A stretch of 32,000 nt of DNA from the NCBI GenBank assembly GCA_031316235.1, contig JALDRA010000001.1, positions 3,510,001 through 3,542,000 on the forward strand, written 5' to 3'. The notes beneath the pieces were generated by a model. The model had not been told where the DNA came from and made no database searches. It was given only the letters and a program-made list of their open reading frames with translations. This document shows, piece by piece, positions 1,594 to 32,000 of this stretch. The stretch's first letter is position 1. Each line of letters starts with the position of its first letter. The position numbers and the translations under genes are program-made. Source of the stretch: Candidatus Scalindua sp. (GTDB lineage Bacteria; Planctomycetota; Brocadiia; Brocadiales; Scalinduaceae).

Positions 1594-2553
1594 TTAAGCA
1601 AAGCCTCTGGTCGTAAGCCATCTTTCTGCTTCGAGAGCTGACATACACCCTGTACCTGCAGCAGTAACGGCCTGCTTATAATAGGAGTCCATAACGTCTC
1701 CGGCCGCAAAAACACCTTCAACACTTGTTGCAGTCCTCCAGGGTGTAGGAGTTGCGATAAAGCCCTTCTCATCCAATTTGACCTGGCCGTTCAAAAAAGC
1801 TACATTTGGGGTATGGCCGATTGCTATAAACAGGCCTCCGCAGTTTAAGCTTGACACCTCTTTGGTTTCCGTATCCTGAAGTTCGACACCGGAAATTAAT
1901 TTGTCCCCTAATACATCAGTGACGATAGAGTTCCATTTGAATTCTATTTTAGGGTTTGTTCTGGCACGTTCCTGCATTATGGGGCTTGCCCTGAGTGTAT
2001 CACGACGATGTATGAGAATGACTTTACTTGCAAATTTTGTCAGATATATACTCTCTTCTATTGCAGAGTCACCGCCACCGACAACAGCAAGAACCTTGTC
2101 TCTATATGCGGGAAGAGCCCCGTCACAAATGGCGCATGCACTCACGCCTCCTCCGGAATGTGCAAGTCTCTGCTCGTTAGGGAGATTGAGCCAGTTTGCC
2201 ATGGCGCCAGTTGCAATAACAACGGCTAACGTCTCTACTTCTTTATCATCTGAAGATTTCAGGTGAAAGGGGTGAGATCCGAAATCAACAGATGTAATAT
2301 CCGCCGAATGGACCCGTGTTTGAAAGTTTGTTGCCTGTTTTCGAAGGAGATCCATAAGATCTGGTCCCTGAACCCCTGAAGGAAACCCGGGGTAATTCTC
2401 CACTTCGGTAGTGAACATGAGCTGTCCACCAGGAACCATCGCACGTGAAGGTTCACCCTCGTAAACAATGGGGTTCATGTTTGCTCGTGCCGCATAAATG
2501 GCAGCAGTCCATGCTGCCGGTCCAGAACCTATGATTACCAGTTTTTCTGTCAT
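1594..2553 (-). CDS. trxB: Thioredoxin-disulfide reductase
   Basis: 319 aa with the FAD fold IIGSGPAAWTAAIYAARA, the redox-active CAICDG, a second dinucleotide fold VVGGGDSAIEE, and a C-terminal GVFAAGDV. Confidence 0.92.
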   Translation of the reverse strand: MTEKLVIIGSGPAAWTAAIYAARANMNPIVYEGEPSRAMVPGGQLMFTTEVENYPGFPSGVQGPDLMDLLRKQATNFQTRVHSADITSVDFGSHPFHLKSSDDKEVETLAVVIATGAMANWLNLPNEQRLAHSGGGVSACAICDGALPAYRDKVLAVVGGGDSAIEESIYLTKFASKVILIHRRDTLRASPIMQERARTNPKIEFKWNSIVTDVLGDKLISGVELQDTETKEVSSLNCGGLFIAIGHTPNVAFLNGQVKLDEKGFIATPTPWRTATSVEGVFAAGDVMDSYYKQAVTAAGTGCMSALEAERWLTTRGFA

Positions 2554-2880
2554 AATCGATCTCCAAAAATTTTGTTGTAAGATTTAATGAATAAAGCCTG
2601 CTCTTTATTTGATCCGGCAAACCGCTCTCTACGTAACGGTGAGAGAACCAGGCACTTTTACAAGTTGATACGTAATCACCTCATTCCCCTGTGACGTGGG
2701 CAACTGATGTTCGTTTCTCAAGATAGTATCATGAGTGGTCAGGAAAATCAATTAAGGAAATATATGTCTGCAGATATGATCAGGAACACTGATCCCTTTT
2801 TTCCGGCATCCTCATGGGCATAACGGGTGAATCATTGATACGGACGGCAGAAGAGGGCCTGCTCCGTATAAAAAAGAGAG

Positions 2881-2964
2881 TATACTGAAACCAAATCTTG
2901 GTGAAGGTATGCTCGCTCAATTTTATCTCGGATTTTATCCGAAAACCAGTATGAGATGAGTATA
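2881..2964 (-). repeat. Dispersed intergenic repeat, copy B (inverted orientation, internal about 25 bp stem missing)
   Basis: The reverse complement reads TATACTCATCTCATACTGGTTTTCGGATAAAATCCGAGATAAAATTGAGCGAGCATACCTTCACCAAGATTTGGTTTCAGTATA. Confidence 0.8.
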
Positions 2965-3111
2965 TTCCGATTGGTTCTGGTAAGCTGATTCCTATTCTGT
3001 ACTAAATGCCGGATTTCTCTTCCCGGGGAGCCTGCATCGATTCTGATATGTATTGACAAATTCTCAGCTATTTGTTAGTTTGGCACTTTTAATGTAAGGC
3101 GCGCTTTTCGC

Positions 3112-4122
3112 ATGAAAAGATTTATCATATCATTCACCAACAGCAGAATCACAAGATTATTTATTTTCACCCTGTTTATATTGCTGCTGGGGGCACTGGG
3201 TCTCAGCCATTTTGAGAATCCGCCGCACATAATCGATGCACTGTGGTGGAGTTTCGTAACGATTACAACCGTTGGATATGGCGATATAGCTCCGTCAACA
3301 ATTGGTGGAAGAATTACCGGCATTATCGTTATGGTGTTTGGCATCGGCATTCTCGGGATGTTTACTGCAACAATAGCAAGCGCCTTTGTAGCAGGAAAAC
3401 TTAAAGAGGGGAAGGGAGTTATTAGCGTAAAGGTTAAGGATCATTTTCTTATCTGTGGCTGGAGTTATAAGGTAAAAGAGATTATTGCCGAGTTGAGGGC
3501 AGATAAAAAAGTAAGGGACAAACCAATAGTGCTGGTGGCAGATATTCCGGAAAAACCATTCGAAGATGAAAATACCTTTTTTATTCAAGGTGATGTGAAC
3601 GCTGAGACTGCAGAAAAAGCCAACCTGAAAGCTGCTTCAGTCGTCATAATATTGTCGGATGAGAGTCTTGATTCGTACTCCAGGGATGCTAAGGCAGTAT
3701 TGAACACCCTTACAATACGTACACTCAATCCGGACATATATGTCTGTTTAGAAATTTCTGATGCAAAAAACATGCAGCATGGCAGGCTGGCGGGAGCAGA
3801 TGAGATCATTGTTGTGGGTGAACTAAGCAGCAACCTTCTTGTCCAGGCAGCCCTGGATCATGGCATAACCCAGATTATCACCGAGCTTGTCAGCAATCAA
3901 TTTGGTAGCGCATTGTATAAGATACCAGCCCCAGAGAACATTATTGGTCAACGTTTTGTTGATGCATTAACATTTCTTAAAAGTGAACATAACGCAATTA
4001 CCCTGGCAGTTGCGTCGCTGGGGGAAAAGAAATTTATGGCGAATCCCGACATGGACTATATTGTTCGAGCAGGAGACCAGTTAGTCGTAATTGCTCAAGA
4101 ACGGCCGCACTTAGGGTCATGA
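3112..4122 (+). CDS. Two-TM K+ channel with cytoplasmic RCK/TrkA domains (MthK-like)
   Basis: 336 aa. Two hydrophobic helices flank the TTVGYGD selectivity filter. An RCK-N Rossmann start (FLICGWSYKVKEII) and a TrkA-C-like end (YIVRAGDQLVVIAQ) follow. Confidence 0.85.
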   Translation: MKRFIISFTNSRITRLFIFTLFILLLGALGLSHFENPPHIIDALWWSFVTITTVGYGDIAPSTIGGRITGIIVMVFGIGILGMFTATIASAFVAGKLKEGKGVISVKVKDHFLICGWSYKVKEIIAELRADKKVRDKPIVLVADIPEKPFEDENTFFIQGDVNAETAEKANLKAASVVIILSDESLDSYSRDAKAVLNTLTIRTLNPDIYVCLEISDAKNMQHGRLAGADEIIVVGELSSNLLVQAALDHGITQIITELVSNQFGSALYKIPAPENIIGQRFVDALTFLKSEHNAITLAVASLGEKKFMANPDMDYIVRAGDQLVVIAQERPHLGS

Positions 4123-4184: not shown

Positions 4185-4288
4185 GTTTTTTTTCTGAATC
4201 CTGAGTGTGAAAGTTATTACTGTTTATTGAGAAAAGAAAAAAGGTAATTATGGAAAAACTTTTTATGCTTTAAGGAGGAAGTATAACG

Positions 4289-8470: not shown

Positions 8471-8645
8471 GTTGGCCATCACTGCCGGAATTAAAGAGGT
8501 ATAAAATAGTAATGTGCGTGTGATTTGCCTGTCTGATGCAGTTTATGCCCGGGCAGGCAATACACAAGCACAAACCAGCCGGTTTCCCCGCTGCTGACAC
8601 TCCCGTTTCATGAAAAAACAGGTAGAATGGTTGCCTGTGCTGATG

Positions 8646-18180: not shown

Positions 18181-18627
18181 ATGTCCGTAAAATATTTTGA
18201 AGATTTGGAGATCTGGATACTTTCAAGGGAATTGACGAACAAAATCTATTCTGTAAGCAATGACGGCAGATTCGCGAAGGATTACGGACTCCGTGATCAG
18301 ATAAGAAGGGCAGCTGTTTCTATTATGTCGAACATTGCGGAAGGTTATGAAAGAGGTGGTAATCAGGAATTTATACAGTTTCTCTCAATAGCCAAAGCGT
18401 CATGCGGTGAAGTCCGGTCACAATTATATCTTGCAATGGACCAGTGCTACATTACGAAAACCGAATGTGAACAATTAATAGATACCTTCAAGAAACTCTC
18501 CATCATGATTAACAACTTCATCGAATACCTCAAAGGCAGTGGATATAAAGGGGCAAAATACAAGATGCCGAAACAGAAAAGCACAAAAGAAAAACTGGAA
18601 GAGATAATAAAAAAAATTAATGTTTGA
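18181..18627 (+). CDS. Four-helix-bundle protein (23S rRNA intervening-sequence protein family)
   Basis: 148 aa. [64 protein letters not shown] is the family signature. Confidence 0.85.
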
Positions 18628-18873
18628 ACCGTTTAAACTGTTTAAACCGCTTGAACCGTTTAAACTGCTTGAACCGTTTAAACCGCTTAAACCGCTTGAA
18701 CTGTTTAAACTGTTTAAACCGTTTAAACTGCTTAAACCGCTTGAACTGTTTAAACCTGTTTGAACTGCTTAAACTGTTTGAACCGTTTAAACTGTTTGAA
18801 CCGCTTAAACCGTTTGAACTGTTTAAACTGTTTAAACTGTTTAAACCGTTTGAACCGTTTAAACTGCTTAAAC
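18621..18873. repeat. 28-unit tandem repeat, 9-bp unit YGYTTRAAC
   Basis: Counted unit by unit. Only positions 1 (C/T), 3 (C/T) and 6 (A/G) vary, and all 8 combinations occur. One unit (18756-18765) has an extra C. 13 units contain the palindrome GTTTAAAC. Confidence 0.95.
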
Positions 18874-18890
18874 GGTTAATCTTCCCCCCG

Positions 18891-19265
18891 GCATGCTCCT
18901 TCTCCACTTTGACTTCTGTCTCTATCGGCGGTCCAAGGCAGTGCGGAAAAACAACATTTGCCAGAGAGATTATGAAGGTTTATCCTTACAAAGAAGAGCG
19001 AAAAGGCATTTACTTTAACTGGGATGACGATGAAGATAGACGACGGATAATCGGCAAGCTATGGGGTGATCCAGATGAACTTGTTATTTTTGATGAATTA
19101 CATAAATTTCGACGATGGAAATCATGGATAAAGGGGATCTATGATACGTCAGAATCAAGATGCAGATTCCTTGTGACTGGTAGCTTCAGGGTTGATGTCT
19201 ATCGGAGAGGTGGCGATTCACTTATGGGAAGATATCACTATTGGCGCCTTCATCCCCTTAATTGA
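18891..19265 (+). pseudogene. AAA ATPase (AAA_14/DUF4143-type) fragment truncated at both ends
   Basis: Walker A GGPRQCGKTT, Walker B LVIFDELH, and GDSLMGRYHYWRLHPL. Only about 10 codons precede the P-loop before the frame dissolves into the 9-bp repeat. The stop comes at about residue 125, where family members continue for about 250 more residues. Confidence 0.55.
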
Positions 19266-19281
19266 AGTAACGTACAACAAA

Positions 19282-19638
19282 ATGGAAATCTCAAAACCTC
19301 TTCAATACTACAGTGAAAGGCTGCAACCTGAAAAGGCAACCAAAATAGTGGCTACGCTAAAAAAACCATACTCTAAAGGCAAGCTCAGGGGAGAAGGACC
19401 GCTGGAAAGCTTAACCCGCTATCCCTGGAAACAGGTAAGACGCTGTATTCATATCCTGGACTACGAAACAATAAGGAATTATGTAATACGTTATAAAAGC
19501 GGTGGACTAAAAGCTCTATTGAACGATAATCACAAAGGATATAGTAGTGAGTTATCCAAGTCAGAAACAGGGCAGTTAGATAACCATCTCGATGGAAATA
19601 CTACCAAAGAATTCAAGAAATCACACTCTGTTTCTTAA
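19282..19638 (+). mobile_element. IS630-like transposase N-terminal HTH fragment (no DDE domain)
   Basis: ETIRNYVIRYKSGGLKALLNDNHKGYSSELSKSETGQLDNHL resembles the winged-HTH region of IS630-family transposases (..W..RY...G...L.D....G....L). The ORF ends after 118 aa without a catalytic domain. Confidence 0.4.
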
Positions 19639-19698
19639 GTACTATGCTGATCAGCAACAACCAACAAAATATAGGCATGTTTTCAAGGGGAGGATGTA

Positions 19699-19853
19699 TT
19701 GAAAAGAAAACATTTTGCTCATAGCGTGGTAGGCAGACCGGTTGATGAGTGGCATTTGCTTGATGAGCTTTTAATGGACACGGCAAACCTTGCGAGATCA
19801 TTTGCGGATGCATAGACTCAGGGGAATGCGCTTATTTGGCGGGGTTGTGGCAT
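19699..19853 (+). pseudogene. Decayed 5' stub of a second cas3 (HD-domain N-terminus)
   Basis: GGGGAGG-N9-TTG followed by KRKHFAHSVVGRPVDEWHLLDELLMDTANLARSFADA then a stop at 19813-19815. After a frameshift it reads DSGECAYLAGLWH. This matches the Cas3 N-terminal pattern (AHS....W.LL..HL...A.LA..FA....A.LAGL.HD.GK). Confidence 0.55.
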
Positions 19854-19897
19854 GTTTCTAATTGCCAACTTATCTGGTATGTGGGGAGGTATGCATA

Positions 19898-22204
19898 TTG
19901 ACGAGATTTTACGCCCATAGTGTTAATAAAGTCGGTAGAAAACATGATATCAAAGAACATCTGTCTTCTGTCAGAAACATAATATGCGACTTTCTACCAG
20001 CTTCTCGTCTTACAGAAGAAGCAAGTTTAGCAGGATTATTGCATGATTTCGGCAAGTATGGTGATTTGTTTCAGGATAGACTAAAGGGTAAAGCGCATGG
20101 AATAGATCACTGGTCAATAGGTGCTTGGCTGGCACTCTTTGAATTTAGAGCAATAGCTGCTGCTTTGGCTATCGAGGGGCACCATATTGGTCTACAACAT
20201 CTCAATAAAAACCACCTAAACGCTATCAATCCAATGCAGCTTGTAACAAACCATCCGCTGCAACTCCGGTTAAGCGAAGTCAATCTTGATATTCTAAAAT
20301 CTCGACTGACTATTGATGGGATAAAACCAGAAACTAACCATACATTGTTAGGCAACGAATTGAATAGTACTATCAGTACTATGCTGGATGTTCGTATGTT
20401 ATTTTCCACTCTTGTTGATGCAGATTTTCTGGATACCGAAGCACATTTTAGCGGAACAACAGAAGGAAAACAATATCGTCAACTAGGATCTGAATTACAG
20501 GAAAAACGTGCATTGGAAATACTGTTAGAGCATATAAAAAGAGTGCAAGACCAAACACGAGCAGCACCAGAAGTGACAGAGGTACGCACCACATTGCTTA
20601 ATAACTGCCTGAAAGCGGCAGATTCAACAACAGGCTTGTTTACCCTTACTGCTCCAACTGGCAGCGGCAAGACACTGGCAATGTTGGCATTTGCTTTAAA
20701 ACATGCAATTGAGCGGAGTTTGAGACGAATAATAATCGTACTTCCATATCTTTCAATCATCGAACAAACAGCGTCAATTTACAGAAGTATTTTTGAATCT
20801 CGATTCGGACGACACTATGTCTTGGAACATCATTCACTTGCGGGAGTCGGGGTTGAAAAGGCAGAATCCGATAGCGAAGGTAAACCGGAAGAACTTGTGA
20901 CGGCTGAAAGGCAGAGACGCTTGCTTGCCGAGAACTGGGATGCTCCCATAATTGTAACTACAAGCGTACAGATGCTTGAATCGCTTTTTTCAAACCGTCC
21001 TTCAGCGTGTAGAAAACTTCATCGGTTGACACGTTCCGTAATATTATTTGATGAAGTTCAGACCTTGCCAGCAAGTCTTGCGGTACCGACACTTGCGGCA
21101 TTATCCCATCTTGCCTATAGTTATGGTTCAAGCGTAGTTTTTTCTACGGCTACTCAGCCGGCTTTTGAGCATCTGCACGAAACTATCAAGTCACATTCTA
21201 CAACCGGATGGCAACCACATAAAATTGTTTCTGAATCTCAATTCCTTTTCGACAATATGAAGCGCACACGCGTTTCATGGGGCAAACCTGACGAAGGTGT
21301 GGAATGGGATGATTTAGCTGGCCGCCTAAAGGAACATGAACAGGCATTATGTATCGTAAACATTAAACGTCATGCCAGGGTTCTCTGGGAGAAAGTCGGT
21401 GAGGAAGCATTTCATCTCTCTACAAATCTCTGTCCGGCTCATCGCAGAGTTGTTTTGGAGACAGTATGTAACAGGCTGCTTAGCAAAGAACCAGTACATC
21501 TTATTGCAACTCAATGTATCGAGGCAGGAGTAGATGTGGACTTCCCTGTAGTCTATAGAGCATATGCGCCGATTGAATCAATCATTCAGGCTGCTGGCAG
21601 ATGTAATCGTGAAGGTAGGCAGGAGAATTTCGGTCGAGTTCATATTTTTAAGCCTGTGCTTGGAAACAATGAAAAAGAATTTCCTGACCCCGGTTACGAG
21701 CAGGCCGCGCAGGTTACAAAGATGCTTTTCAGACGACATGGGTCGGCTAATATGCTACTCGATGATCCTGGCTTTATAACAGCATACTATCGTGAGCTTT
21801 ACGATATAAGCAAACCTGAAGAGATGAAAAAAACCCAAAGACTATTTGAATACGTTACGGCTGGAAGTTTTCCAGATATAGCGAATGAATATCGTTTGAT
21901 AAAGCAGGATGTCATCAATGTTCTTGTACCTTACCAATTGTACATTGAGGAATTTCGTAAGCTAAACGATGATGCAAACAAAATCGGACTAACTGCCGCC
22001 TGGATAAGGCGCGCCCGTCCGTTAACAGTTAGTCTTTATCGCCCAAAACCTGAAGATACTATTTGGGATTCTCTTATTACCGTGAAGGTGGCGGGAAGAA
22101 AGCAGCGTGAACAAAACGACTGGTTTATTTACATCATAGAGAAAGATTATCATCCTGTGTTGGGACTAACCCCTTCGGGTTCACTCAATACATGGATTGG
22201 ATGA
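19898..22204 (+). CDS. cas3: Cas3 HD nuclease / SF2 helicase
   Basis: The ORF is open from 19862. TTG at 19898 lies 8 nt after GGGGAGG. HD motifs are YAHS, LAGLLHDFGKY and IEGHHIGL. Helicase motifs are motif I TAPTGSGKT, motif II LFDEVQ, and QAAGRCNREG. Confidence 0.93.
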   Translation: MTRFYAHSVNKVGRKHDIKEHLSSVRNIICDFLPASRLTEEASLAGLLHDFGKYGDLFQDRLKGKAHGIDHWSIGAWLALFEFRAIAAALAIEGHHIGLQHLNKNHLNAINPMQLVTNHPLQLRLSEVNLDILKSRLTIDGIKPETNHTLLGNELNSTISTMLDVRMLFSTLVDADFLDTEAHFSGTTEGKQYRQLGSELQEKRALEILLEHIKRVQDQTRAAPEVTEVRTTLLNNCLKAADSTTGLFTLTAPTGSGKTLAMLAFALKHAIERSLRRIIIVLPYLSIIEQTASIYRSIFESRFGRHYVLEHHSLAGVGVEKAESDSEGKPEELVTAERQRRLLAENWDAPIIVTTSVQMLESLFSNRPSACRKLHRLTRSVILFDEVQTLPASLAVPTLAALSHLAYSYGSSVVFSTATQPAFEHLHETIKSHSTTGWQPHKIVSESQFLFDNMKRTRVSWGKPDEGVEWDDLAGRLKEHEQALCIVNIKRHARVLWEKVGEEAFHLSTNLCPAHRRVVLETVCNRLLSKEPVHLIATQCIEAGVDVDFPVVYRAYAPIESIIQAAGRCNREGRQENFGRVHIFKPVLGNNEKEFPDPGYEQAAQVTKMLFRRHGSANMLLDDPGFITAYYRELYDISKPEEMKKTQRLFEYVTAGSFPDIANEYRLIKQDVINVLVPYQLYIEEFRKLNDDANKIGLTAAWIRRARPLTVSLYRPKPEDTIWDSLITVKVAGRKQREQNDWFIYIIEKDYHPVLGLTPSGSLNTWIG

Positions 22205-22218
22205 AAGGAGGAAATGTT

Positions 22219-22956
22219 ATGCGTGGTAAAACTCATTGTCTGGAAGTATGGGGCGATTTTGCCTGTTTCACGCGCCCAGAGATGAAAGTTGAGCGTTTCA
22301 GCTATCCTGTCATTACGCCGTCAGCAGCGCGAGGGATATTTGATGCCATCTACTGGAAAAGGTCTTATGGTTTCTACTGGCAGATTGAAAGAGTAGAAAT
22401 TCTATTGCCGCCTCGATATATAGCACTACGGCGTAATGAGGTAAAGGACAAAGTCCCAAGTGAACGCACAATACTTGCGTGGAAAAATGGAACAACTGAA
22501 ATAGAACCGTTATGGGCAGATGGAGGTAAAGACTTCCTTGGTACTGATCAAAAAGGGCGCACACAGCGACAGACAATGGCATTGAAGGATGTTCGCTATC
22601 GTCTTTATGCACATCTTGCATTCCGTGGTATCGATCAGAATACAAAAACCTTTGATGCCCAATTTGAACGACTTTCAAGTCATGGCAAGTGTTTTTACCA
22701 GCCGTATTTCGGGTGCAGGGAGTTTCCGGCATATTTCGAATTAGTAGATAGTGATTCTAAACGTCAGCCTCCAATCAATTTAGATTTGGATCTTGGTTGG
22801 ATGCTTTATGATGTATTTGATCTTAGCCGAACAAACGATGAAAATGCCTCTCCACGCATAAGCGTTTTTCATGCACGTATTTCAAATGGTGAAATGAAGG
22901 TGCCGGAATACAACGACACTATAGTCAAAAAAGTTGAGGAGGTACCGCATGCTTGA
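22219..22956 (+). CDS. cas5: Cas5c (Cas5d) subunit / pre-crRNA endoribonuclease
   Basis: The ATG follows AAGGAGG. CLEVWGDFACFTRPEMKVERFSYPVITPSAARGIFDAIYWK is the Cas5 type I-C signature. Position is between cas3 and cas8c. Confidence 0.92.
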   Translation: MRGKTHCLEVWGDFACFTRPEMKVERFSYPVITPSAARGIFDAIYWKRSYGFYWQIERVEILLPPRYIALRRNEVKDKVPSERTILAWKNGTTEIEPLWADGGKDFLGTDQKGRTQRQTMALKDVRYRLYAHLAFRGIDQNTKTFDAQFERLSSHGKCFYQPYFGCREFPAYFELVDSDSKRQPPINLDLDLGWMLYDVFDLSRTNDENASPRISVFHARISNGEMKVPEYNDTIVKKVEEVPHA

Positions 22957-24712
22957 TGCAGTTTTAAAGAAGGCAGGAAAAACAGAACCTGGTTTTACAC
23001 ACAAAATTGTAAAATGGGCTATTACCTGTACAAGAAATGGACACTTTACTGGTATTGTTCCGCTTGCCGAAGGTAGGGGACGAGAATATCCGCATTGTCC
23101 GAACCTCAGTCAGCCCGAACTGGTAGGTGGAGAGGAAGCACGGTCACATTTTCTATCAGAGAGTTTGGCAACAGTAGCACTCTACTGGAAAGATAATCTG
23201 GAGCAAAAAGAACAGGAAAAGTTTTGTGCAAAACATGAATATTTCTGTAAATTACTTAAGGATGCTGCACATGTTGCCCCATACTTAAGCGCTGCGTCAA
23301 AAATATTGGCTGATAAAAATATTCTTGAAGCGATTCGCTCTGATTTAAAACAACAAAAAGCGAAACCTACTGATGCATCAACTATATTAATAGATAACAT
23401 TAATCCTCTAGAGCAAGAGGATTGGCACGATTGGTGGCGTGAATTTAGGATAAGCATAAGGGCAAAGCCTAAAAATAACGCTCCTAAGATGAGGTGTTTA
23501 GTTACAGGAGATTTGGTTGTGCCAGCAATTACGCATCCCAAAATCATTGGATTAGCAGGTGTTGGAGGATTAGGTACTGGCGATGTTCTGGCAGGATTTG
23601 ATAAACAGGCATTTCAATCTTATGGTCTGGAGCAGGCAACTAATGCAGCTATGTCCGAAAATACTGCTACAGCATATGCGGAAACCCTTAAACAGTTAAT
23701 CAGAGAGAAAAGAGTAAAACTTGGCGGCACAATTTCTACTTACTGGTTTCTTGAGACAATTCCTGATGAAGATGATCCGTTGGCATGGCTTACTGAACCA
23801 CCGGAGCAGACGCAAACATTTGCCGAACTAAAAGCGCGAGAATTACTTAGCGCAATACATGAAGGAAAACGACCCGACCTTGCAAATAACCGCTATTTTA
23901 CCATCATGTTATCTGGAGCTTCTGGACGAGTCATGGTACGCGAAATCATGCAGGGTACTTTTGAAAGCCTCGCGTCTAATATTGATAAATGGTTCAGCGA
24001 TCTATCAATAGTTTGCCGTGAAGGCACAGGAATCGCAAGGCGACCAAAGTTCTTTTCAGTCGTAAAAGCCATTGAGTTTTTATCAAAGGAGGGCAAGATT
24101 CTGCGGAACATTGATGATGTGCCACCTCCCTTAATACGTGAACTATGGCGGTCTGCTATTACAGGTGGGAAGCTTCCTTCATCTGCTATGAGTCGTACAC
24201 TTATTCGAATCAGATCAGATATTGTTTCAGATATGCCTCCGATGGATTCTCGTTTTTCAATATTAAAATCTTATCTATTAAGGAAAGGAGACGACAATAT
24301 GCAACCATACTTAAATCCAGAACACCCAAATCCTGCTTACCATTGTGGCAGATTGCTTGCAGTGCTTGCCCGTTTGCAGCGTGCCGCGCTTGGCGATGTA
24401 GGGTCGGGAGTTGTACAGCGTTATTACACTGCGGCAAGCCAAACACCAGGACTTATTCTTGGGCGACTTGCTGCCAATGCCAAAAATCACCTTGGTAAAT
24501 TGGAAGGTGGTTTAGTTTATTGGTATGAGGATCAAATTGCTGAGATAATGAGCCGTATCAAAGATACCGTTCCTCGTACACTGACATTAGAGGAGCAAAG
24601 TCTTTTTGCCCTCGGCTACTATCAACAACTTGCTTCACTTAATACTGGCAAAGCTGGTAAACGGAAAAGTATTGATAACAATAATCTCGAAAAAAAGGAG
24701 GAAAACGAATGA
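22949..24712 (+). CDS. cas8c: Cas8c (Csd1) large subunit
   Basis: ATG at 22949 follows GAGGAGG and overlaps the cas5 stop. About 587 aa. The C-terminal [38 protein letters not shown] is Csd1-like. It sits between cas5c and cas7c. Confidence 0.88.
24299..24712 (+). CDS. Predicted Cas11c small subunit from an internal in-frame start within cas8c
   Basis: AAGGAAAGGAG ends at 24290, and an in-frame ATG at 24299 follows after 8 nt. The product is 137 aa and covers the helical C-terminus of Cas8c. Internal translation of Cas11 from the large-subunit gene is established for type I-C. Confidence 0.45.
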
Positions 24713-25719
24713 GTATACAAAACCGCTACGAATTTCTTTATTTGTTTGACTGTGAGAATGGTAATCCTAATGGCGACCCTGACGCCGGTAATGCTCCACG
24801 TATAGATCCTGAAGATATGAGAGGATTAGTGTCCGACGTAGCTCTTAAGCGCCGAGTGCGCAACTATGTGCAGATAGCACAAGGGAATGTTGCTCCGAAT
24901 GCAATCTTTATTGAGCATGCAACAAATTTGAATCGTCCCATTACCAAAGCTCATGAAGAGACAGGTGGTGTGCCTGAAAAAAGCGCTTCAAAAGGCAAAG
25001 TAAAAGAAGCTCGTAAATGGATGTGCAAGACCTTTTATGACGTGCGCACCTTCGGCGCAGTAATGAGCACAGGACCCAACGCCGGACAAGTTCGTGGACC
25101 AGTGCAATTTTCCTTTGCTCGTTCGCTTGATCCTGTTCTGCCTCTCGATATTTCTATTACACGTATGGCTGTTGCAGAGAATGTAAAAGGAGTTAAGACG
25201 TCAGATGGCTATCTCAAATGGGAGAGTGAACAAGAGGAGGACAAGCTTCGTACAATGGGGCGCAAAAATCTTATTCCTTATGGATTGTATGCAGCAAAAG
25301 GATTTATCAGTGCACATCTTTCTGATGATGACACAGGCACAGCCTTTTCTGAAAATGATCTTACACTGTTATGGGAAGCTCTGGCTAATATGTACGATCA
25401 TGATCGTTCTTCAAGCAAGGGATATATGGCTCGACGTGGACTATATATTTTCAAACATATCGGTACGGATAATAATCCTGAACAAAGGGCAAGACAAGCT
25501 AAGCTTGGCTGCGCTCCTGCACAAGCATTGCTTGATCTCGGCAAGGTGATAGATATTCAAAAAAATGAAGAGGCCATGAAAAATGATCACGTCATTTCTC
25601 CTCGAAGTTTGGAGCATTATAGCGTGCAGATTCATGCAGACCATATTCCTAACGGCGTGGAGCTGTGGATTTGGGATGATACAACTGAGGGGCTGGTGAG
25701 GGAACATCCCGTTGCTTAA
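24709..25719 (+). CDS. cas7: Cas7c (Csd2) backbone subunit
   Basis: ATGA overlap with the cas8c stop and an [40 protein letters not shown] and [10 protein letters not shown] are Csd2 signatures. Confidence 0.92.
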
Positions 25720-26374
25720 AAAATTAGTAGAGAGATTTGATGAAGACAACCTCATTCATCTTGCGTCTGTGAACCAATATGCTTACTGCCCGCGAAGATG
25801 CGCCCTTATCCATATTGAGCAGTTATGGAGCGAAAATATGTTCACTGCAGAAGGCAGGATCATGCATGACAAGGTTGACACGGCAAAGCAGGAAAAACGT
25901 AGGGATGTCCGTGTTGAATATGGCGTACCTCTAAGGTCGCTGCGGCTTGGCCTGATTGGCAAAGCTGATGTTGTGGAGTTTCACAGGAAAGGTAATAAAT
26001 GGCATCCATTTCCCGTGGAATATAAGAGAGGCAAACCCAAAAAGGACAACTGCGATAAAGTCCAGCTCTGTGCACAGGCAATGTGCCTTGAGGAAATGTT
26101 GAATTGTTCTATTACCGAGGGGGCGCTGTTCTACGGGACAACCAGGCGAAGAGAGGACGTTGTGTTTGATGCAGCATTGAGAATCGAGACGGAAGAGACG
26201 GCAAAGAGAGTTCATGAGCTTATCAGTTTGGCCATTACTCCTAAACCGGAGTATTCAAAGAAGTGTAAAAGTTGTTCACTCTACGAATTATGTATGCCGG
26301 AGACGTGCGGCAAAAAGGGAAAGGCGAGCGCGTATCTTTTGGCGTTAAGGGGTGAAGAAGAGAATAATGTGTAA
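25712..26374 (+). CDS. cas4: Cas4 RecB-like exonuclease with Fe-S cluster cysteines
   Basis: 220 aa with a TTG start overlapping the cas7 end. N-terminal [10 protein letters not shown], the nuclease motif [12 protein letters not shown], and the C-terminal cluster [10 protein letters not shown]. Confidence 0.9.
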
Positions 26375-26500
26375 TAAAATTCTCACGCAGAGCCGCAAAG
26401 AACGCTAAGAAAATGAAATAAGAGTTGATATTTACCCTTTGTGTGAGGATTAGTCGTTTATCATTATCGTGAAAACTGGTATAAAAAAGCATAACATAAC

Positions 26501-27532
26501 ATGAAAAGACACCTTAATACATTATTCGTCACGACACAGGGAGCATATCTCGCAAAAGAGGGAGAGACAGTTATCGTTAAGGTAGATAATGACATCCGCC
26601 TGCGTCTTCCGGTGCATACAATTGGGGGAATTGTCTGTTTCGGACAGGTATCATGCAGCCCCTGGCTCATGGGATACTGCGCGGAGCAGAATGTGGCGAT
26701 AAGTTTCCTGACTGAGTACGGTCGATTTCTTGCAAAGGTACAGGGTCCGGTATCGGGGAATGTTCTATTACGGCGTGAACAGTACCGTCAGGCTGATAAT
26801 CCTGAAACATCGGCTGCAATTTCAAAGGCAGTCTTGACCGGCAAGATAGCCAATTGCCGTATAGTGCTTGAACGGGTACTGCGGGACCATCCAGATAAGA
26901 TTGAAACAAAGTCAGTGACCATGGCTTCACAGAAGCTTGCAAATTCACTAAGAAGGCTGCAATCAGAATTACCACTGGATATTTTGCGCGGAATCGAAGG
27001 AGAAGCCGCATTGACCTATTTCGGGGTATTCAACCATCTGATTACTTCACAGAAAGAAGATTTTGTATTTCATGACCGAAACCGCAGGCCTCCTCTCGAT
27101 ACGGTGAACTGTCTCTTATCATTTATCTATACAATTGTTATGCATGATGTCAGGTCGGCGTTAGAGACTGTCGGCCTTGATCCAGCAGTCGGCTTCCTCC
27201 ATAGAGACCGTCCCGGACGGCCCAGCCTCGCCCTTGATATGATGGAGGAGTTCCGCCCATTCCTTGCAGACCGCCTTGTACTTTCACTGATCAACCTCGG
27301 CCAGGTGAAGGGCAAGGGGTTTGAAATCAAAGAAAACGGTGCGGTACTGATGGATGATGAAACAAGAAAAACCGTGCTTACCGCTTATCAGACAAGAAAA
27401 CAGGATGAGATTGTGCATCCATTCCTCAATGAGAAGGTGACGATAGGGGTTTTATTCCATGTGCAGGCAATGCTTATGGCCCGTTATCTGCGCGGTGACC
27501 TGGATGCCTATCCGCCATATGTGTGGAGGTAA
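26501..27532 (+). CDS. cas1: Cas1 integrase
   Basis: 343 aa. LNTLFVTTQGAYLAKEGETV, GIEGEAALTYF, RRPPLDTVNCLLSFIY and GFLHRDRPGRPSLALDMMEEFR. Confidence 0.95.
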   Translation: MKRHLNTLFVTTQGAYLAKEGETVIVKVDNDIRLRLPVHTIGGIVCFGQVSCSPWLMGYCAEQNVAISFLTEYGRFLAKVQGPVSGNVLLRREQYRQADNPETSAAISKAVLTGKIANCRIVLERVLRDHPDKIETKSVTMASQKLANSLRRLQSELPLDILRGIEGEAALTYFGVFNHLITSQKEDFVFHDRNRRPPLDTVNCLLSFIYTIVMHDVRSALETVGLDPAVGFLHRDRPGRPSLALDMMEEFRPFLADRLVLSLINLGQVKGKGFEIKENGAVLMDDETRKTVLTAYQTRKQDEIVHPFLNEKVTIGVLFHVQAMLMARYLRGDLDAYPPYVWR

Positions 27533-27541
27533 GAGAGAACA

Positions 27542-27829
27542 GTGTTTGTACTAGTCAGTTATGATGTTGCTTCGGAAGATAATGGTCAGCGGAGGCTGCG
27601 CAGGGTGGCAAGGGCATGTCAGGACTACGGCCAGAGGGTGCAGTATTCAGTCTTTGAATGCATTGTTGACCCCGCACAATGGACGGTCTTGCGCAATAGA
27701 CTAATTGATGAAATTGATCCAGAAATAGATAGTTTGAGGTTTTACTTCCTGGGTTCAAACTGGAAGCATCGGGTAGAACATGTTGGTGCTAAAAAGTCTT
27801 TAGATCAGGACGGGCCATTGATCGTTTAA
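27542..27829 (+). CDS. cas2: Cas2
   Basis: 95 aa with a GTG start. FVLVSYDV......RRLRRVARACQDYGQRVQYSVFEC. Confidence 0.92.
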   Translation: MFVLVSYDVASEDNGQRRLRRVARACQDYGQRVQYSVFECIVDPAQWTVLRNRLIDEIDPEIDSLRFYFLGSNWKHRVEHVGAKKSLDQDGPLIV

Positions 27830-28010
27830 GTGGTAGTGCGAACCCGGAGCCCACATTCATTCCCAGTCAGGTTCGCAAGTCGATAAAGCATTATTATTGT
27901 ATATGTTATGCACAATGTTCTTTGACAAACTAATGACTAACTGTGCAGAATTGAAGGGTCGCAAAAAGTAGTGAATAAGCTCTTTATTATTAATGGCTTA
28001 TAAATGAGTA
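27830..28010 (+). promoter_or_regulatory. CRISPR leader (AT-rich, between cas2 and the first repeat)
   Basis: 181 bp and AT-rich toward the array. Contains an 8-bp inverted repeat (TGCGAACC at 27837-27844, GGTTCGCA at 27870-27877) and a TTGACA hexamer at 27922-27927. No promoter could be pinned down with confidence. Confidence 0.65.
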
Positions 28011-31000
28011 GTCGCTCCCCGTGCGGGAGCGTGGATTGAAACTGCACCAGAGGTAAAAGCTATCGATGCAGGTAAGTCGCTCCCGTGCGGAGCGTGGATT
28101 GAAACGATAATTTCGGACGAATAAGCCTTCAATTGTACTCGTCGCCCCCGTGCGGGAGCGTGGATTGAAACATCAAATCTCTTCAGAGGAGCAGTCAATA
28201 TTTAGTCAGAAAGTCGCTCCCCGTGCGGGAGCGTGGATTGAAACTCTAATGTTTTACAAATAAAGTATTGCGAAATAGTCGCTCCCTCGTGCGGGAGCGT
28301 GGATTGAAAACCTTAACTTGGCGTTTCTTCCGCTACGTCGCTCCCCGTGCGGGAGCGTGGATTGAAACCAATCATTGCAATTACAATCATTGAACATACG
28401 TCGCTCCCCGTGCGGGAGCGTGGATTGAAACTTGTCCTGAGTAAGAAAAGTACAAGAGTATAAGTCGCTCCCCGTGCGGGAGCGGATTGAAACGGGCAAG
28501 AGGCTTCTAGGCTACACTGACAAAGAAATGAGTCGCTCCCCGTGCGGGAGCGTGGATTGAAACACATTATGATTAACTACCGAATACGGAGTTATATAGC
28601 TCGGTCGCTCCCCGTGCGGGAGCGTGGATTGAAACTTAATATCGCTCTTTCTTCTCGTATGGCTACACGTCGCCCCCTCGTGCGGGAGCGTGGATTGAAA
28701 CTGGGACTAGACTCAACTATGTATGGTCAGCAAGTAGTCGCTCCCCGTGCGGGAGCGTGGATTGAAACTTACGATAAGCCTTTCAATTGTACTTCAAGTC
28801 GCCTCGTGCGGGAGCGGGATTGAAACGCCAAATCATAAGCATGTGAAGAATCCGGTCGCCCCCCGTGCGGGAGCGTGGATTGAAACAAATAAATATCGGT
28901 TTAGATCCGATTCACCGTCGCCCCCTGCGGGAGCGTGGATTGAAACTTAGAAGTATTGGACACCAGGCTAGGTGATGTCGCTCCCCGTGCGGGAGCGTGG
29001 ATTGAAACCAGGAAAAGTTTACAATAGTAATAGGTTTTGGGCGTCGCTCCCCGTGCGGGAGCGTGGATTGAAACACAAACCTACTACTATTATCTGGCAA
29101 TTTTGTCGCTCCCCGTGCGGGGAGCGTGGATTGAAAACTTCGCTTAATTTTTTAATTTTTAGATCAGCTTGTAAGTCGCTCCTCGTGCGGGAGCGTGGAT
29201 TGAAACACTTGAGATAACCGGGGTCCCACAAGGCAGTAGGTCGTTCCCTCGTGCGGGAGCGTGGATTGAAACTCTGTGCAATCAGCCAAAGCATATGCTA
29301 CACGGCAGACACAGGTCGCTCCCCGTGCGGGAGCGTGGATTGAAACTTGACTAAAGGAAAAGGCGTTGAGACTCTGGAGAAGTCGCCCCCGTGCGGGAGC
29401 GTGGATTGAAACAAGGCAATTGCTCACATACGGCCTTAATTTCTTTGTCGCTCCCCGTGCGGGGAGCGTGGATTGAAACAACGAACAACCATCATGAGCA
29501 CATGGCCGAGTTTGTCGCTCCCGTGCGGGAGCGTGGATTGAAACGCAACTGTAGTTCCGGTGCAGGCGCACATGGGATCGTCGCTCCCCGTGCGGGAGCG
29601 TGGATTGAAACTATATAGTCAGTCTCTTCTTTGTGTACGGCAAGTCGCTCCCCGTGCGGGAGCGTGGATTGAAACCTGTCATCACCATCACCGAACCCCG
29701 ATTATCGCGTCGCTCCCCGTGCGGGAGCGTGGATTGAAACTTTAAATGACAAACAAAACCAACTTATAACTGGTCGCTCCCGTGCGGGAGCGTGGATTGA
29801 AACTTGTCACTAAGGTTTCCGGAGTGAAATTATTATGTCGCTCCCCCCGTGCGGGAGCGTGGATTGAAACATGCCCTTTAACCTTCCCTCCGGCTATGGT
29901 TTTAGTCGCCTCGTGCGGGAGCGTGGATTGAAACAATTTACCCACTATACCATTAAACAGTAGAAAAGTCGCTCCCCGTGCGGGAGCGTGGATTGAAACA
30001 AATATAAAATTGGAGATTTCAATGATCTTTGAGAGTCGCTCCCCCGTGCGGGAGCGTGGATTGAAACATGACACTGGCGGGCATCTCCTGAAGATTTTGA
30101 TGTCGCTCCCGTGCGGGAGCGTGGATTGAAACTCTCATGATGTACTAGAGGTAGGTAATGATCAGGTCGCTCCCCGTGCGGGAGCGTGGATTGAAACTTC
30201 GTAGACAATCCCGGATTCTGCCAGATAGTGAACGTCGCTCCCCGTGCGGGAGCGTGGATTGAAACGATTCTGGTGCCAGCCGTCAATGTCGCAGTAGTAG
30301 TCGCTCCCCCGTGGAGCGTGGATGAAACCCTTTGCCTTTGTCTGTTTTACTCTCAGGGGCTTTACGTCGCTCCCCGTGCGGGAGCGTGGATTGAAACTTG
30401 CTGCAATTGCAACGGGAACGTATACAGTTGACGTCGCTCCCCGTGCGGGAGCGTGGATTGAAACGTTCTTGTTCCTCTGTCATGTCTCCTGGGTAATGTC
30501 GCTCCCCGTGCGGGAGCGTGGATTGAAAACGTTTCAGTGCTCAAGGATTCCGAATCCTATAACTGTCGCTCCCCGTGCGGGAGCGTGGATTGAAACATAA
30601 CAGGAATAATATATCTATAAACCAAACTTGGTCGCTCCCCGTGCGGGAGCGTGGATTGAAACATGAATGAAATAGAGAAAACACGGGTGGCAGAGAGTCG
30701 CTCCCCGTGCGGGAGCGTGGATTGAAACATAAACAAATTCCTTTCTATTGTTGGTTGCCAAAGTCGCCCCCGTGCGGGAGCGTGATTGAAACTTACCGGA
30801 AAGGGCTCTGGTGCAGGCGATACGAAAGCTAAAGGTCGCTCCCGTGCGGGAGCGTGGATTGAAACTATTGAACCTCAATGATAAACTGTGATTGCTCGGT
30901 GCGTCGCTCCCTCGTGCGGGAGCGTGGATTGAAACGGATAATCCGCGCTTTGCAAAATTCCACTCGACAACGTATTAGTCGCTCCCCGTGCGGGAGCGTG

Positions 31001-32000
31001 GATTGAAACTTGGATTTTATTCAGGAGGCATAGGGGTGAGAATACGAGGGGATGACGCCCCCCGTGCGGGAGCGTGGATTGAAACTTACTCCAGAGGCAT
31101 GAGTTAATTATTAAGGATATTAGGTCGCTCCCCGTGCGGGAGCGTGGATTGAAACGCAGTGGAAGTCATATACTTTGATTAGTGTCAGAGGAAACCGGTC
31201 GCTCCCCGTGCGGGAGCGTGGATTGAAACTTACGATTGCTAAAAACGCTGAATGCTAAGTCCCACCATCCAGTCGTCCCCCGTGCGGGAGCGTGGATTGA
31301 AACGCAACCCCTCTTCGAGATCGGGCAGGCTAAATTCTGGAGGCGCGTCGCTCCCCGTGCGGGAGCGTGGATTGAAACTTACCTCAGAATATAATGCGAC
31401 ACACTGATGACTCGATTAAGGTCGCTCCCCGTGCGGGAGCGTGGATTGAAACCTAGCAAACCAGGTCTCCAGGCTTTTAAGGCAATGGGTTAATTCCGCG
31501 TCGCTCCCCGTGCGGGAGCGTGGATTGAAACGTATCCAAATAGAGCAAGCCAAGACTGGAGCAGCGACTTTGAAGTCGCCCCCGTGCGGGAGCGTGGATT
31601 GAAACATCTTGTGCATCACTTGAATTTCCGCTTAATTAAAATATCCTTGTCGCTCTCGTGCGGGAGCGTGGATTGAAACATCGTAAGAAGGCGGCATTGT
31701 TGAGCACGGCGATTAAGCAATAGTCGCTCCCCGTGCGGGAGCGTGGATTGAAACTTCGTGTCAACCGCAACTCTCTGATTGCCCAAACAACCCTATCGTC
31801 GCTCCCCGTGCGGGAGCGTGGATTGAAACTTGCAATTGCCTAGGCAATGGCGTTTCCAGAGGTGAAGCTGGTCGCTCCTCGTGCGGGAGCGTGGATTGAA
31901 ACACCTATGTTGCACAGGTAGAGATAAATGAGCGTTTGATGTCGCTCCCCGTGCGGGAGCGTGGATTGAAACTTATCAAATGACATCTTATTTCGCAGGA
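28011..32000 (+). CRISPR. CRISPR array, type I-C repeat GTCGCTCCCCGTGCGGGAGCGTGGATTGAAAC; 59 repeats, 58 complete spacers, continues beyond window
   Basis: Repeats were located one by one (first at 28011-28042, last at 31941-31972). The repeat has a 7-bp stem CGCTCCC/GGGAGCG and a 3' ATTGAAAC handle. Orientation matches the cas operon. Confidence 0.98.

Follow-up and report, generated by a model that had tools for sequence, protein, structure and literature searches.

Three spacer-length regimes, one of them peaking at 42-43 nt, in a type I-C CRISPR array of Candidatus Scalindua behind a resident adaptation module and an exchanged effector cassette

The stretch of DNA analyzed here (the window) comprises 32,000 nucleotides of the genome of Candidatus Scalindua sp., an anammox planctomycete (GenBank assembly GCA_031316235.1, contig JALDRA010000001.1, positions 3,510,001 to 3,542,000) and carries a complete type I-C operon followed by a CRISPR array, all on the + strand; the subject of this report is the length of the spacers in that array. 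The operon consists of cas3 (19862/19898-22204), cas5c (22192-22956), cas8c (csd1; 22934-24712), cas7 (csd2; 24709-25719), a chimeric cas4 (25712-26374), cas1c (26501-27532), and cas2 (27542-27829), which together make up the type I-C gene set. Every gene scored above its NCBIfam cut-off: cas3 with the generic Cas3 core and HD models, cas5c and cas8c with type I-C models (136 and 266 bits, respectively), cas7 with the Csd2 model (299 bits), cas4 with TIGR00372 (160 bits), cas1c with TIGR03640 (528 bits), and cas2 with TIGR01573. The encoded Cas1 shares 94% identity with its Ca. S. rubra counterpart and 93% with the proteins from Ca. S. sediminis and Scalindua sp. OFTM1.

Approximate (fuzzy) matching to the consensus repeat, GTCGCTCCCCGTGCGGGAGCGTGGATTGAAAC, resolved 59 repeats, 58 complete spacers, and a partial 59th spacer between 28011 and 32000, in agreement with the repeat and spacer coordinates of a first-pass annotation made from the sequence alone; the last repeat in the window ends at 31972, and the array is cut by the window end and runs on past it. 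Three spacer lengths carry a 1-nt ambiguity, as an extra A of the repeat A-run can be assigned to the repeat (spacer 5, 25 or 26 nt; spacer 18, 36 or 37 nt; spacer 39, 34 or 35 nt). The consensus repeat, whose family is common to 46 related loci, has the form of a type I-C repeat: 32 nt with a 7-bp hairpin on the 5′ side and an 11-nt 3′ tail, which reads UGGAUUGAAAC on the + strand and ends in ATTGAAAC (predicted fold ..(((((((.....)))))))..........., -13 kcal/mol). The orientation of hairpin and tail implies that transcription of the array leads away from cas2 and places the leader on the cas2 side, and the 181 nt at this position (27830-28010) are homologous to the leaders of four related loci (L005-L007 and L092). 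Within this leader, a consensus match marks a promoter-like site, TTGACA-18-CAGAAT (27922-27951). The first-pass annotation had likewise put the leader beside cas2, and its conclusion that the leader-distal spacers are the older ones follows from the same orientation. No Rfam family reached its gathering score between 17000 and 29000.

Three length regimes succeed one another along the array. The newest 20 spacers (28043-29314) are irregular, with a mean of 33.5 nt, a standard deviation (sd) of 4.4, and a range of 26-42 nt; seven are no longer than 31 nt, and three reach 40-42 nt (spacer 3, 41 nt; spacer 9, 40 nt; spacer 20, 42 nt). Spacers 21-42 (29347-30762) are canonical, with a mean of 34.05 nt, an sd of 1.2, and a range of 32-37 nt. 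The oldest spacers in the window, 43-58 (30793-31940), have a mean of 41.9 nt, a median of 42 nt, an sd of 2.5, and a range of 37-47 nt, with the mode at 42-43 nt and 11 of 16 at 42-44 nt. When two change points were fitted without supervision under a model of mean plus variance, they fell exactly after spacers 20 and 42, and a single change point after spacer 42 was supported by permutation (p = 5e-5). Lengths differ between the second and third blocks (Mann-Whitney p = 2e-7), as do variances between the first and second (Levene p = 3e-4). These results reproduce the block numbers of the first-pass annotation, yet its picture of long older and short newer spacers holds only in part: the long block is indeed the older one, but spacers 3, 9, and 20 are of the long size, and the newest block contains undersized spacers as well. 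The array is best read as storing at least two sizing modes, a canonical one of 34 ± 1 nt and a long one peaking at 42-43 nt.

To place these lengths, 46 arrays adjoining Cas1 relatives (69-94% identical) were assembled from 80 loci of species-representative genomes. Their 1,032 spacers span 27-38 nt with a mode of 34 nt, and none reaches 39 nt, so the long spacers, which had been called long for type I-C, lie outside everything recorded in related arrays. The arrays of Scalindua relatives have spacers of 33-36 nt, and two further Scalindua-type loci, L092 and L108, behave alike. Spacers of at least 39 nt account for 13 of the 16 in the long block versus 0 of 1,032 in the relatives (Fisher p = 2e-27), and spacers of 31 nt or less for 7 of 20 in the newest block versus 6 of 1,032. 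Measured against the type I-C range (~33-36 nt; 27-38 nt among the relatives), only spacers 21-42 conform. Since 42-43 nt is outside the output of the lineage, something other than the canonical ruler sized the long spacers. A longer repeat hidden in the long block was considered and rejected, as beyond 32 nt only a partial TT or TTAC at the spacer starts is conserved.

The quality of the sequence bears directly on these lengths. Of the 59 repeats, 29 are imperfect, together carrying 50 small edits (24 deletions, nine insertions, and 17 substitutions; 2.6% per nt), mainly in C and G runs and at a similar rate in all three blocks, whereas at least 94% of the repeats in related arrays are perfect. 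Flanking sequence, in contrast, is 100% identical to short-read (Illumina) contigs over 23290-27968 (4,679 bp, from cas8c to the leader) and over 26778-28042 (1,265 bp, as far as the first repeat), and in short-read contigs both the first and the last repeat are perfect. Because the repeats carry indels while the flanks match Illumina sequence completely, we infer that the array is a long-read stretch left unpolished, in which spacer lengths are good to about ±1-3 nt.

One could therefore ascribe the whole pattern to assembly or consensus error in an unpolished long-read region, possibly over a mixed population. The edited repeats between error-free flanks, the near-perfect repeats of the relatives, and the fact that the newest and most strain-variable block is also the most irregular all speak for such an artefact, but the size and distribution of the errors make it very improbable. 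The net change in repeat length has an sd of 0.96 and a maximum of 3 nt, a noise of ~±1 nt that is equal in all blocks, and the second block keeps its sd of 1.2; nor could random error lengthen 16 consecutive spacers by 8-9 nt while the repeats stay at 32 nt. A natural control is provided by locus L105 in a Brocadiaceae metagenome-assembled genome (MAG; GCA_031316145.1, Cas1 87% identical), where 79 of 86 repeats are imperfect (array at 11514-17028; 9.4% edits per nt, 3.6 times more errors) and the errors are confined to the CRISPR region, the cas genes beside the array being called at full length. Its 85 spacers are nevertheless unimodal, with a mean of 33.9 nt, an sd of 1.85, a range of 27-38 nt, and none of 39 nt or more. 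The low noise and the unimodal control array together show that sequencing noise is far too small to make 42-43 nt out of 34 nt, and that it can account for no more than a minor share of the scatter among the newest 20 spacers. As a separate observation, unpolished CRISPR arrays seem to be a recurrent weakness of polished long-read MAGs.

The history of the cas operon was reconstructed by comparison with the same relatives. Protein identity to Scalindua loci is bimodal, at 93-95% for Cas1, 94-97% for Cas2, and 79-82% for Cas4 versus 24-47% for Cas3, Cas5, Cas8c, and Cas7, and these four effector proteins are 65-80% identical to those of their nearest relative, locus L060 of a Syntrophorhabdales MAG. 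Nucleotide homology is split in the same manner: to Scalindua loci it is confined to 19680-19854 and ~25784-28010, resuming at 25784-25808, and to L060 it covers 19906-25571. Bimodal identities and split homology together point to an exchange of effector genes only, in which an imported cassette of ~5.9 kb and Syntrophorhabdales-like type (19862-25719, + strand), comprising cas3, cas5c, cas8c, cas7, and roughly the 25 first codons of cas4, replaced the resident one. The remainder of cas4, cas1, cas2, the leader, and the array belong to the resident Scalindua lineage; cas1, cas2, most of cas4, and the leader are 80-89% identical in nucleotides and 79-97% in amino acids to Scalindua loci with 33-36 nt arrays. 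Effector and adaptation modules are known from comparative genomics to shuffle in CRISPR-Cas evolution, and the locus resembles such cases in that the effector cassette was swapped while cas4(3′)-cas1-cas2, leader, and array stayed in place. Unlike them, its left junction is marked by a cas3 5′ stub ending at the HD motif, a recurrent feature that lies three deep in locus L103.

Three-frame translation of this stub (19680-19854, + strand) gives the N-terminal ~52 codons of a cas3, interrupted by a stop and a frameshift and reaching as far as the GLWH within the HD motif. The translated protein shares 63-67% identity with the N-terminal ends of Cas3 from Scalindua loci L005-L007 but only ~36% with the product of the cas3 that comes next, and the stub's blastn identity to L005, L006, L007, and L092 is 75-80%, ending at 19854. 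Stubs of the same type stand upstream of differing effector cassettes in L092 (1948-2121), L005 (2434-2589), L012, L032, L054, and L105 (2894-2989), and in a row of three in L103 (21-184, 1020-1154, and 2031-2183). The arrays behind them have canonical lengths in L092 and L105, two spacers only in L005 (34 and 36 nt), and a single repeat on the contig in L103. More generally, cas3 5′ stubs ending at or near GLWHD recur in anammox and related type I-C loci in which cas4(3′)-cas1-cas2 and the leader are conserved, and the series resembles a fossil record in which effector cassettes were replaced one after another while the left junction stayed the same.

The first-pass annotation had proposed that the acquisition genes were replaced, or Cas4 gained or lost, between the long and short blocks, and had cited the stub as independent evidence of a former cas operon and changed machinery. 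A former operon at this locus is borne out insofar as the stub derives from an earlier resident cas3, but most of cas4, cas1, cas2, and the leader were not replaced, being orthologous to those of Scalindua loci with 33-36 nt arrays, and only cas3 to cas7 are foreign. The stub is the N-terminus of the resident cas3 left by the effector-only exchange; because it also precedes arrays of canonical length in L092 and L105, it marks effector-module turnover and not a change of ruler, and as evidence for new acquisition machinery it falls away. Besides the former operon, replacement is favored by one point, namely that the right-hand junction of the exchange lies inside the 5′ end of cas4 (25712-25800), so that ~25 N-terminal residues of Cas4 did change and the protein is chimeric.

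The altered residues, ~1-25, end just before C26, the first cysteine of the iron-sulfur cluster, where the window protein has the YCPRR type of N-terminus seen in L092 and L024 and the Scalindua relatives L005-L007 have FCERQ, a difference that might bear on trimming and, through it, on the irregular newest spacers. Residues C26, D86, E103, K105, C185, C188, and C194 are nevertheless invariant in an alignment with eight relatives, and the D...E-x-K nuclease motif and the four cluster cysteines predict a functional Cas4; an inactivated Cas4 was accordingly rejected as a candidate, all catalytic and Fe-S residues being kept. Published effects of Cas4 are, moreover, of another size. Removal of Cas4 from the type I-D system of Synechocystis moved the mode from 36 to 35 nt (PMC5896167), in type V-A the distribution was skewed to longer spacers with the mode unchanged (PMC9419969), and in type I-A of Sulfolobus spacers were slightly shorter or their distribution altered (bioRxiv 10.1101/486738). 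Cas4 loss is not known to produce a tight peak lying 8-9 nt beyond the normal length. With resident adaptation genes, an intact Cas4, and experimental effects of ~1 nt, a replaced acquisition cassette or a gain or loss of Cas4 is thus quite improbable as the origin of the length shift. The window array and the experimental systems (including types V-A and V-B in PMC9419969) are alike in that length depends on Cas1-Cas2 and also on the processing of prespacer ends; the systems differ in that the window array departs by 8-9 nt, to a sharply peaked length and with cas4 present and intact, compared with ~1 nt or a skew in theirs.

A strong rival, although a somewhat unlikely one, is that spacers 43 onward were built in another array, of this genome or of a relative, by an integrase with a longer ruler and joined to this one by recombination between identical repeats. 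The abrupt boundary between spacers 42 and 43 and the 16 contiguous long spacers behind it are what such a fusion or import would leave, and the locus is recombination-prone, as the effector exchange here and the serial cas3 stubs in many relatives attest. The long block also differs in composition, with a G+C content of 44.5% versus 38-41% and a 5′ signature of its own: seven of its 16 spacers start with TT, and four start with TTAC compared with 3 of 1,046 reference spacers (p ~1e-7), which points to different end-processing. TT starts are frequent in the array as a whole (16 of 58 spacers versus 9.8% in related arrays), the cut 59th spacer starts with TTA, and TT or TTAC at the spacer start could be a signature of processing on the side of the protospacer adjacent motif (PAM). 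At the proposed junction, repeat 43 (30763-30792) is ordinary and holds no leader remnant: it departs from the consensus by two deletions of the kind seen along the array and contains no inserted sequence. The ordinary look of this repeat counts only weakly against fusion, as recombination between identical repeats need leave no scar. No donor type was found, with no run of 42-43 nt spacers in a metagenome-wide scan, and fusion does not account for spacers 3, 9, and 20, which measure 40-42 nt and stand close to the leader.

That scan looked for two consecutive 40-46 nt spacers between repeats of the form GTCGC-N17-GGATTGAAAC and returned six contigs, none with a run peaking at 42-43 nt. Three were false positives, in which the real repeat is 4-5 nt longer and the apparent spacers all end in CTGT or CCTCA. 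Two others, L085 and L090, represent one locus with arrays at 2362-4105 and 10180-10844 of L090, spacers of 32-42 nt, and, at 8642-9992, Cas2 and a Cas1 of type I-C class, the latter broken by a frameshift, without cas4; a CARF/Csx1-type gene and WYL regulators lie nearby. In L089, a type I-C array (849-2042) directly follows cas7 with no adjacent cas4, and three spacers at its upstream, presumed leader, side measure 41, 42, and 37 nt, all starting with ATGC, the rest being 31-38 nt. A long-spacer run in a type I-C array is therefore truly rare, and L090/L085 and L089, which alone among the other natural arrays encountered combine type I-C repeats with spacers of 40-42 nt, lack an adjacent cas4. 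The L090/L085 locus resembles the window in its repeat family (GTCGC...GTGGATTGAAAC), in a Cas1 of type I-C class, and in spacers of up to 42 nt; it differs in its broad 32-42 nt distribution, its lack of cas4, and its host organism, whereas the window encodes Cas4 and a full Cascade.

Spacer content was searched for the origin of the extra length. The array matched phages by BLAST through its repeats only, concatenated spacers had no BLAST match among plasmids, and of seven spacer cores compared with IMG/VR, six were negative and one gave an 18-nt chance match with flanks that do not fit; the protospacers that the first-pass annotation had hoped to match were thus not found in these phage, plasmid, and IMG/VR data, and no spacer matched elsewhere in the window or in the compared loci. 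Spacers 2 (28106-28140) and 12 (28769-28797) derive from the same protospacer region with a 9-nt offset; internal duplication within the array was rejected, these two being its only overlapping spacers. Nucleotides 7-9 of spacer 2 read TTC, and the start of spacer 12 falls immediately behind them, the sole hint of the expected TTC PAM; the first two bases of spacer 12 are TT where spacer 2 has GG, and the pair also differs by three homopolymer indels, which represent either read errors or different phage variants. Two simple sources of the added length were also rejected: reading of the long spacers did not reveal a PAM kept inside them (TTC at nt 6-9), and +8.5 nt fits neither 6-nt Cas7 steps nor 10.5-bp helical steps.

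The explanation preferred here, with a probability of roughly 40%, is that a single leader received spacers of two sizing modes in the course of time, the long ones being supplied within the same cell by a second integrase or along some other non-canonical path. The TTAC starts of the long block, with the different end-processing to which they point, favor this explanation as well. The canonical mode would be the product of the resident Cas4-Cas1-Cas2, as in all its relatives. The long mode would have been dominant while spacers 43-58 were laid down, absent for the next 22 acquisitions, and sporadically back, as spacers 3, 9, and 20, among the newest 20, beside undersized spacers. It may stem from a second Cas1-Cas2 elsewhere in the genome that accepts the same leader and repeat, or the resident Cas1-Cas2 may integrate prespacers that Cas4 and host nucleases have not trimmed to the usual size. 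Because spacers of 40-42 nt occur near the leader, the long mode is not confined to an imported or ancient segment, and this recurrence slightly favors a mode to which the cell still has access. A supporting analogy comes from L090 and L089, its nearest natural analogues, whose arrays have type I-C repeats and no adjacent cas4.

Several observations weigh against two modes in one cell. No second integrase was seen within the 32-kb window, and the Cas4-less arrays of L090 are broad, without a sharp peak at 42-43 nt. In published experiments (PMC5896167, PMC9419969), removing Cas4 altered length by ~1 nt or widened its spread. A single unbroken run of 16 long spacers is just as compatible with import by recombination, and no protospacer was found that would give the PAM, the strand, and the end that holds the extra 8-9 nt. 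The irregularity of the newest block could, in part, reflect a consensus over a heterogeneous population. A further and bolder interpretation, that an ordinary, intact Cas4-Cas1-Cas2 locus runs in discrete size settings (~43 nt, 34 nt, and loose) that are switched within the life of one array, is considered unlikely.

The array shares with canonical type I-C of the Desulfovibrio vulgaris and Bacillus halodurans type the full gene set, the 32-nt hairpin repeat and its tail end, the leader on the cas2 side, and the 34 ± 1 nt middle block, but it differs in its contiguous 42-43 nt block and its irregular newest block, neither of which occurs in the 46 related arrays. Size heterogeneity is reported for type I-B of Haloarcula hispanica (PMC5416893), and this is a precedent for one integrase with more than one spacer size; the heterogeneity described there is among newly acquired spacers, and that of the window is in successive length blocks along one array.

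Other features of the region were recorded alongside. Beyond the window, on the trailer side (L002 1452-3436 / L093), the final repeat of the array is perfect and is followed by toxin-antitoxin genes, namely a Gp49/RelE-ParE toxin with a helix-turn-helix (HTH) partner, a DUF3768 protein, and RelE with an MqsA-like antitoxin. The toxin's accession number at NCBI (MEZ6157085.1 / MDR4506060.1) comes immediately after that of Cas2 (MEZ6157084.1 / MDR4506059.1), and in short Logan contigs with the exact Cas2 or the trailer-side toxin the array is collapsed to one repeat; no array adjoins the homologous toxin in Scalindua sp. AMX11. Upstream, a 9-nt tandem repeat, TGTTTAAAC, in ~28 copies (18621-18877) stands at the start of an open reading frame (ORF) with a truncated AAA_14 ATPase domain, and this ORF is followed by a fragment with a transposase-like HTH_29 domain (19192-19638), forming a junk zone directly upstream of the CRISPR locus. 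A few kb upstream of the CRISPR locus, a gene cluster at 10067-15590 specifies a DUF2760 protein and two Hsp70-like proteins, one of 614 aa and one of 951 aa that ends in a DUF3731 (DnaK-related) domain. The exact 32-nt repeat also occurs singly in three IMG/VR viral contigs, L100 (reverse strand, 4212-4243 in that orientation), L102 (3375-3406), and L101 (3055-3086), and in L100 and L102 it lies directly downstream of a promoter-like TTGACA...TATGGTAAT stretch. These could be phage-borne units that yield decoy RNAs against type I-C; no spacer of the window matched the parts of the three contigs that were examined.

Spacer length is usually treated as fixed for a CRISPR subtype and as set by the Cas1-Cas2(-Cas4) complex. 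A sharp change of 8-9 nt without any change in the adaptation genes of the locus itself would amount to a natural experiment on that ruler, and it would bear on cross-talk between adaptation modules that have a repeat in common. Cascade would face CRISPR RNAs that are 8-9 nt longer, an excess that does not amount to a whole number of 6-nt Cas7 steps, and subtype calls, as well as PAM or target predictions made from spacer length, can fail inside a single array. If switchable size settings were to prove true, Cas1-Cas2 geometry alone would not fix the ruler in systems that contain Cas4; an exchangeable factor would determine it, with a second integrase that uses the same leader, the stoichiometry of Cas4, or a nuclease of the host as candidates.

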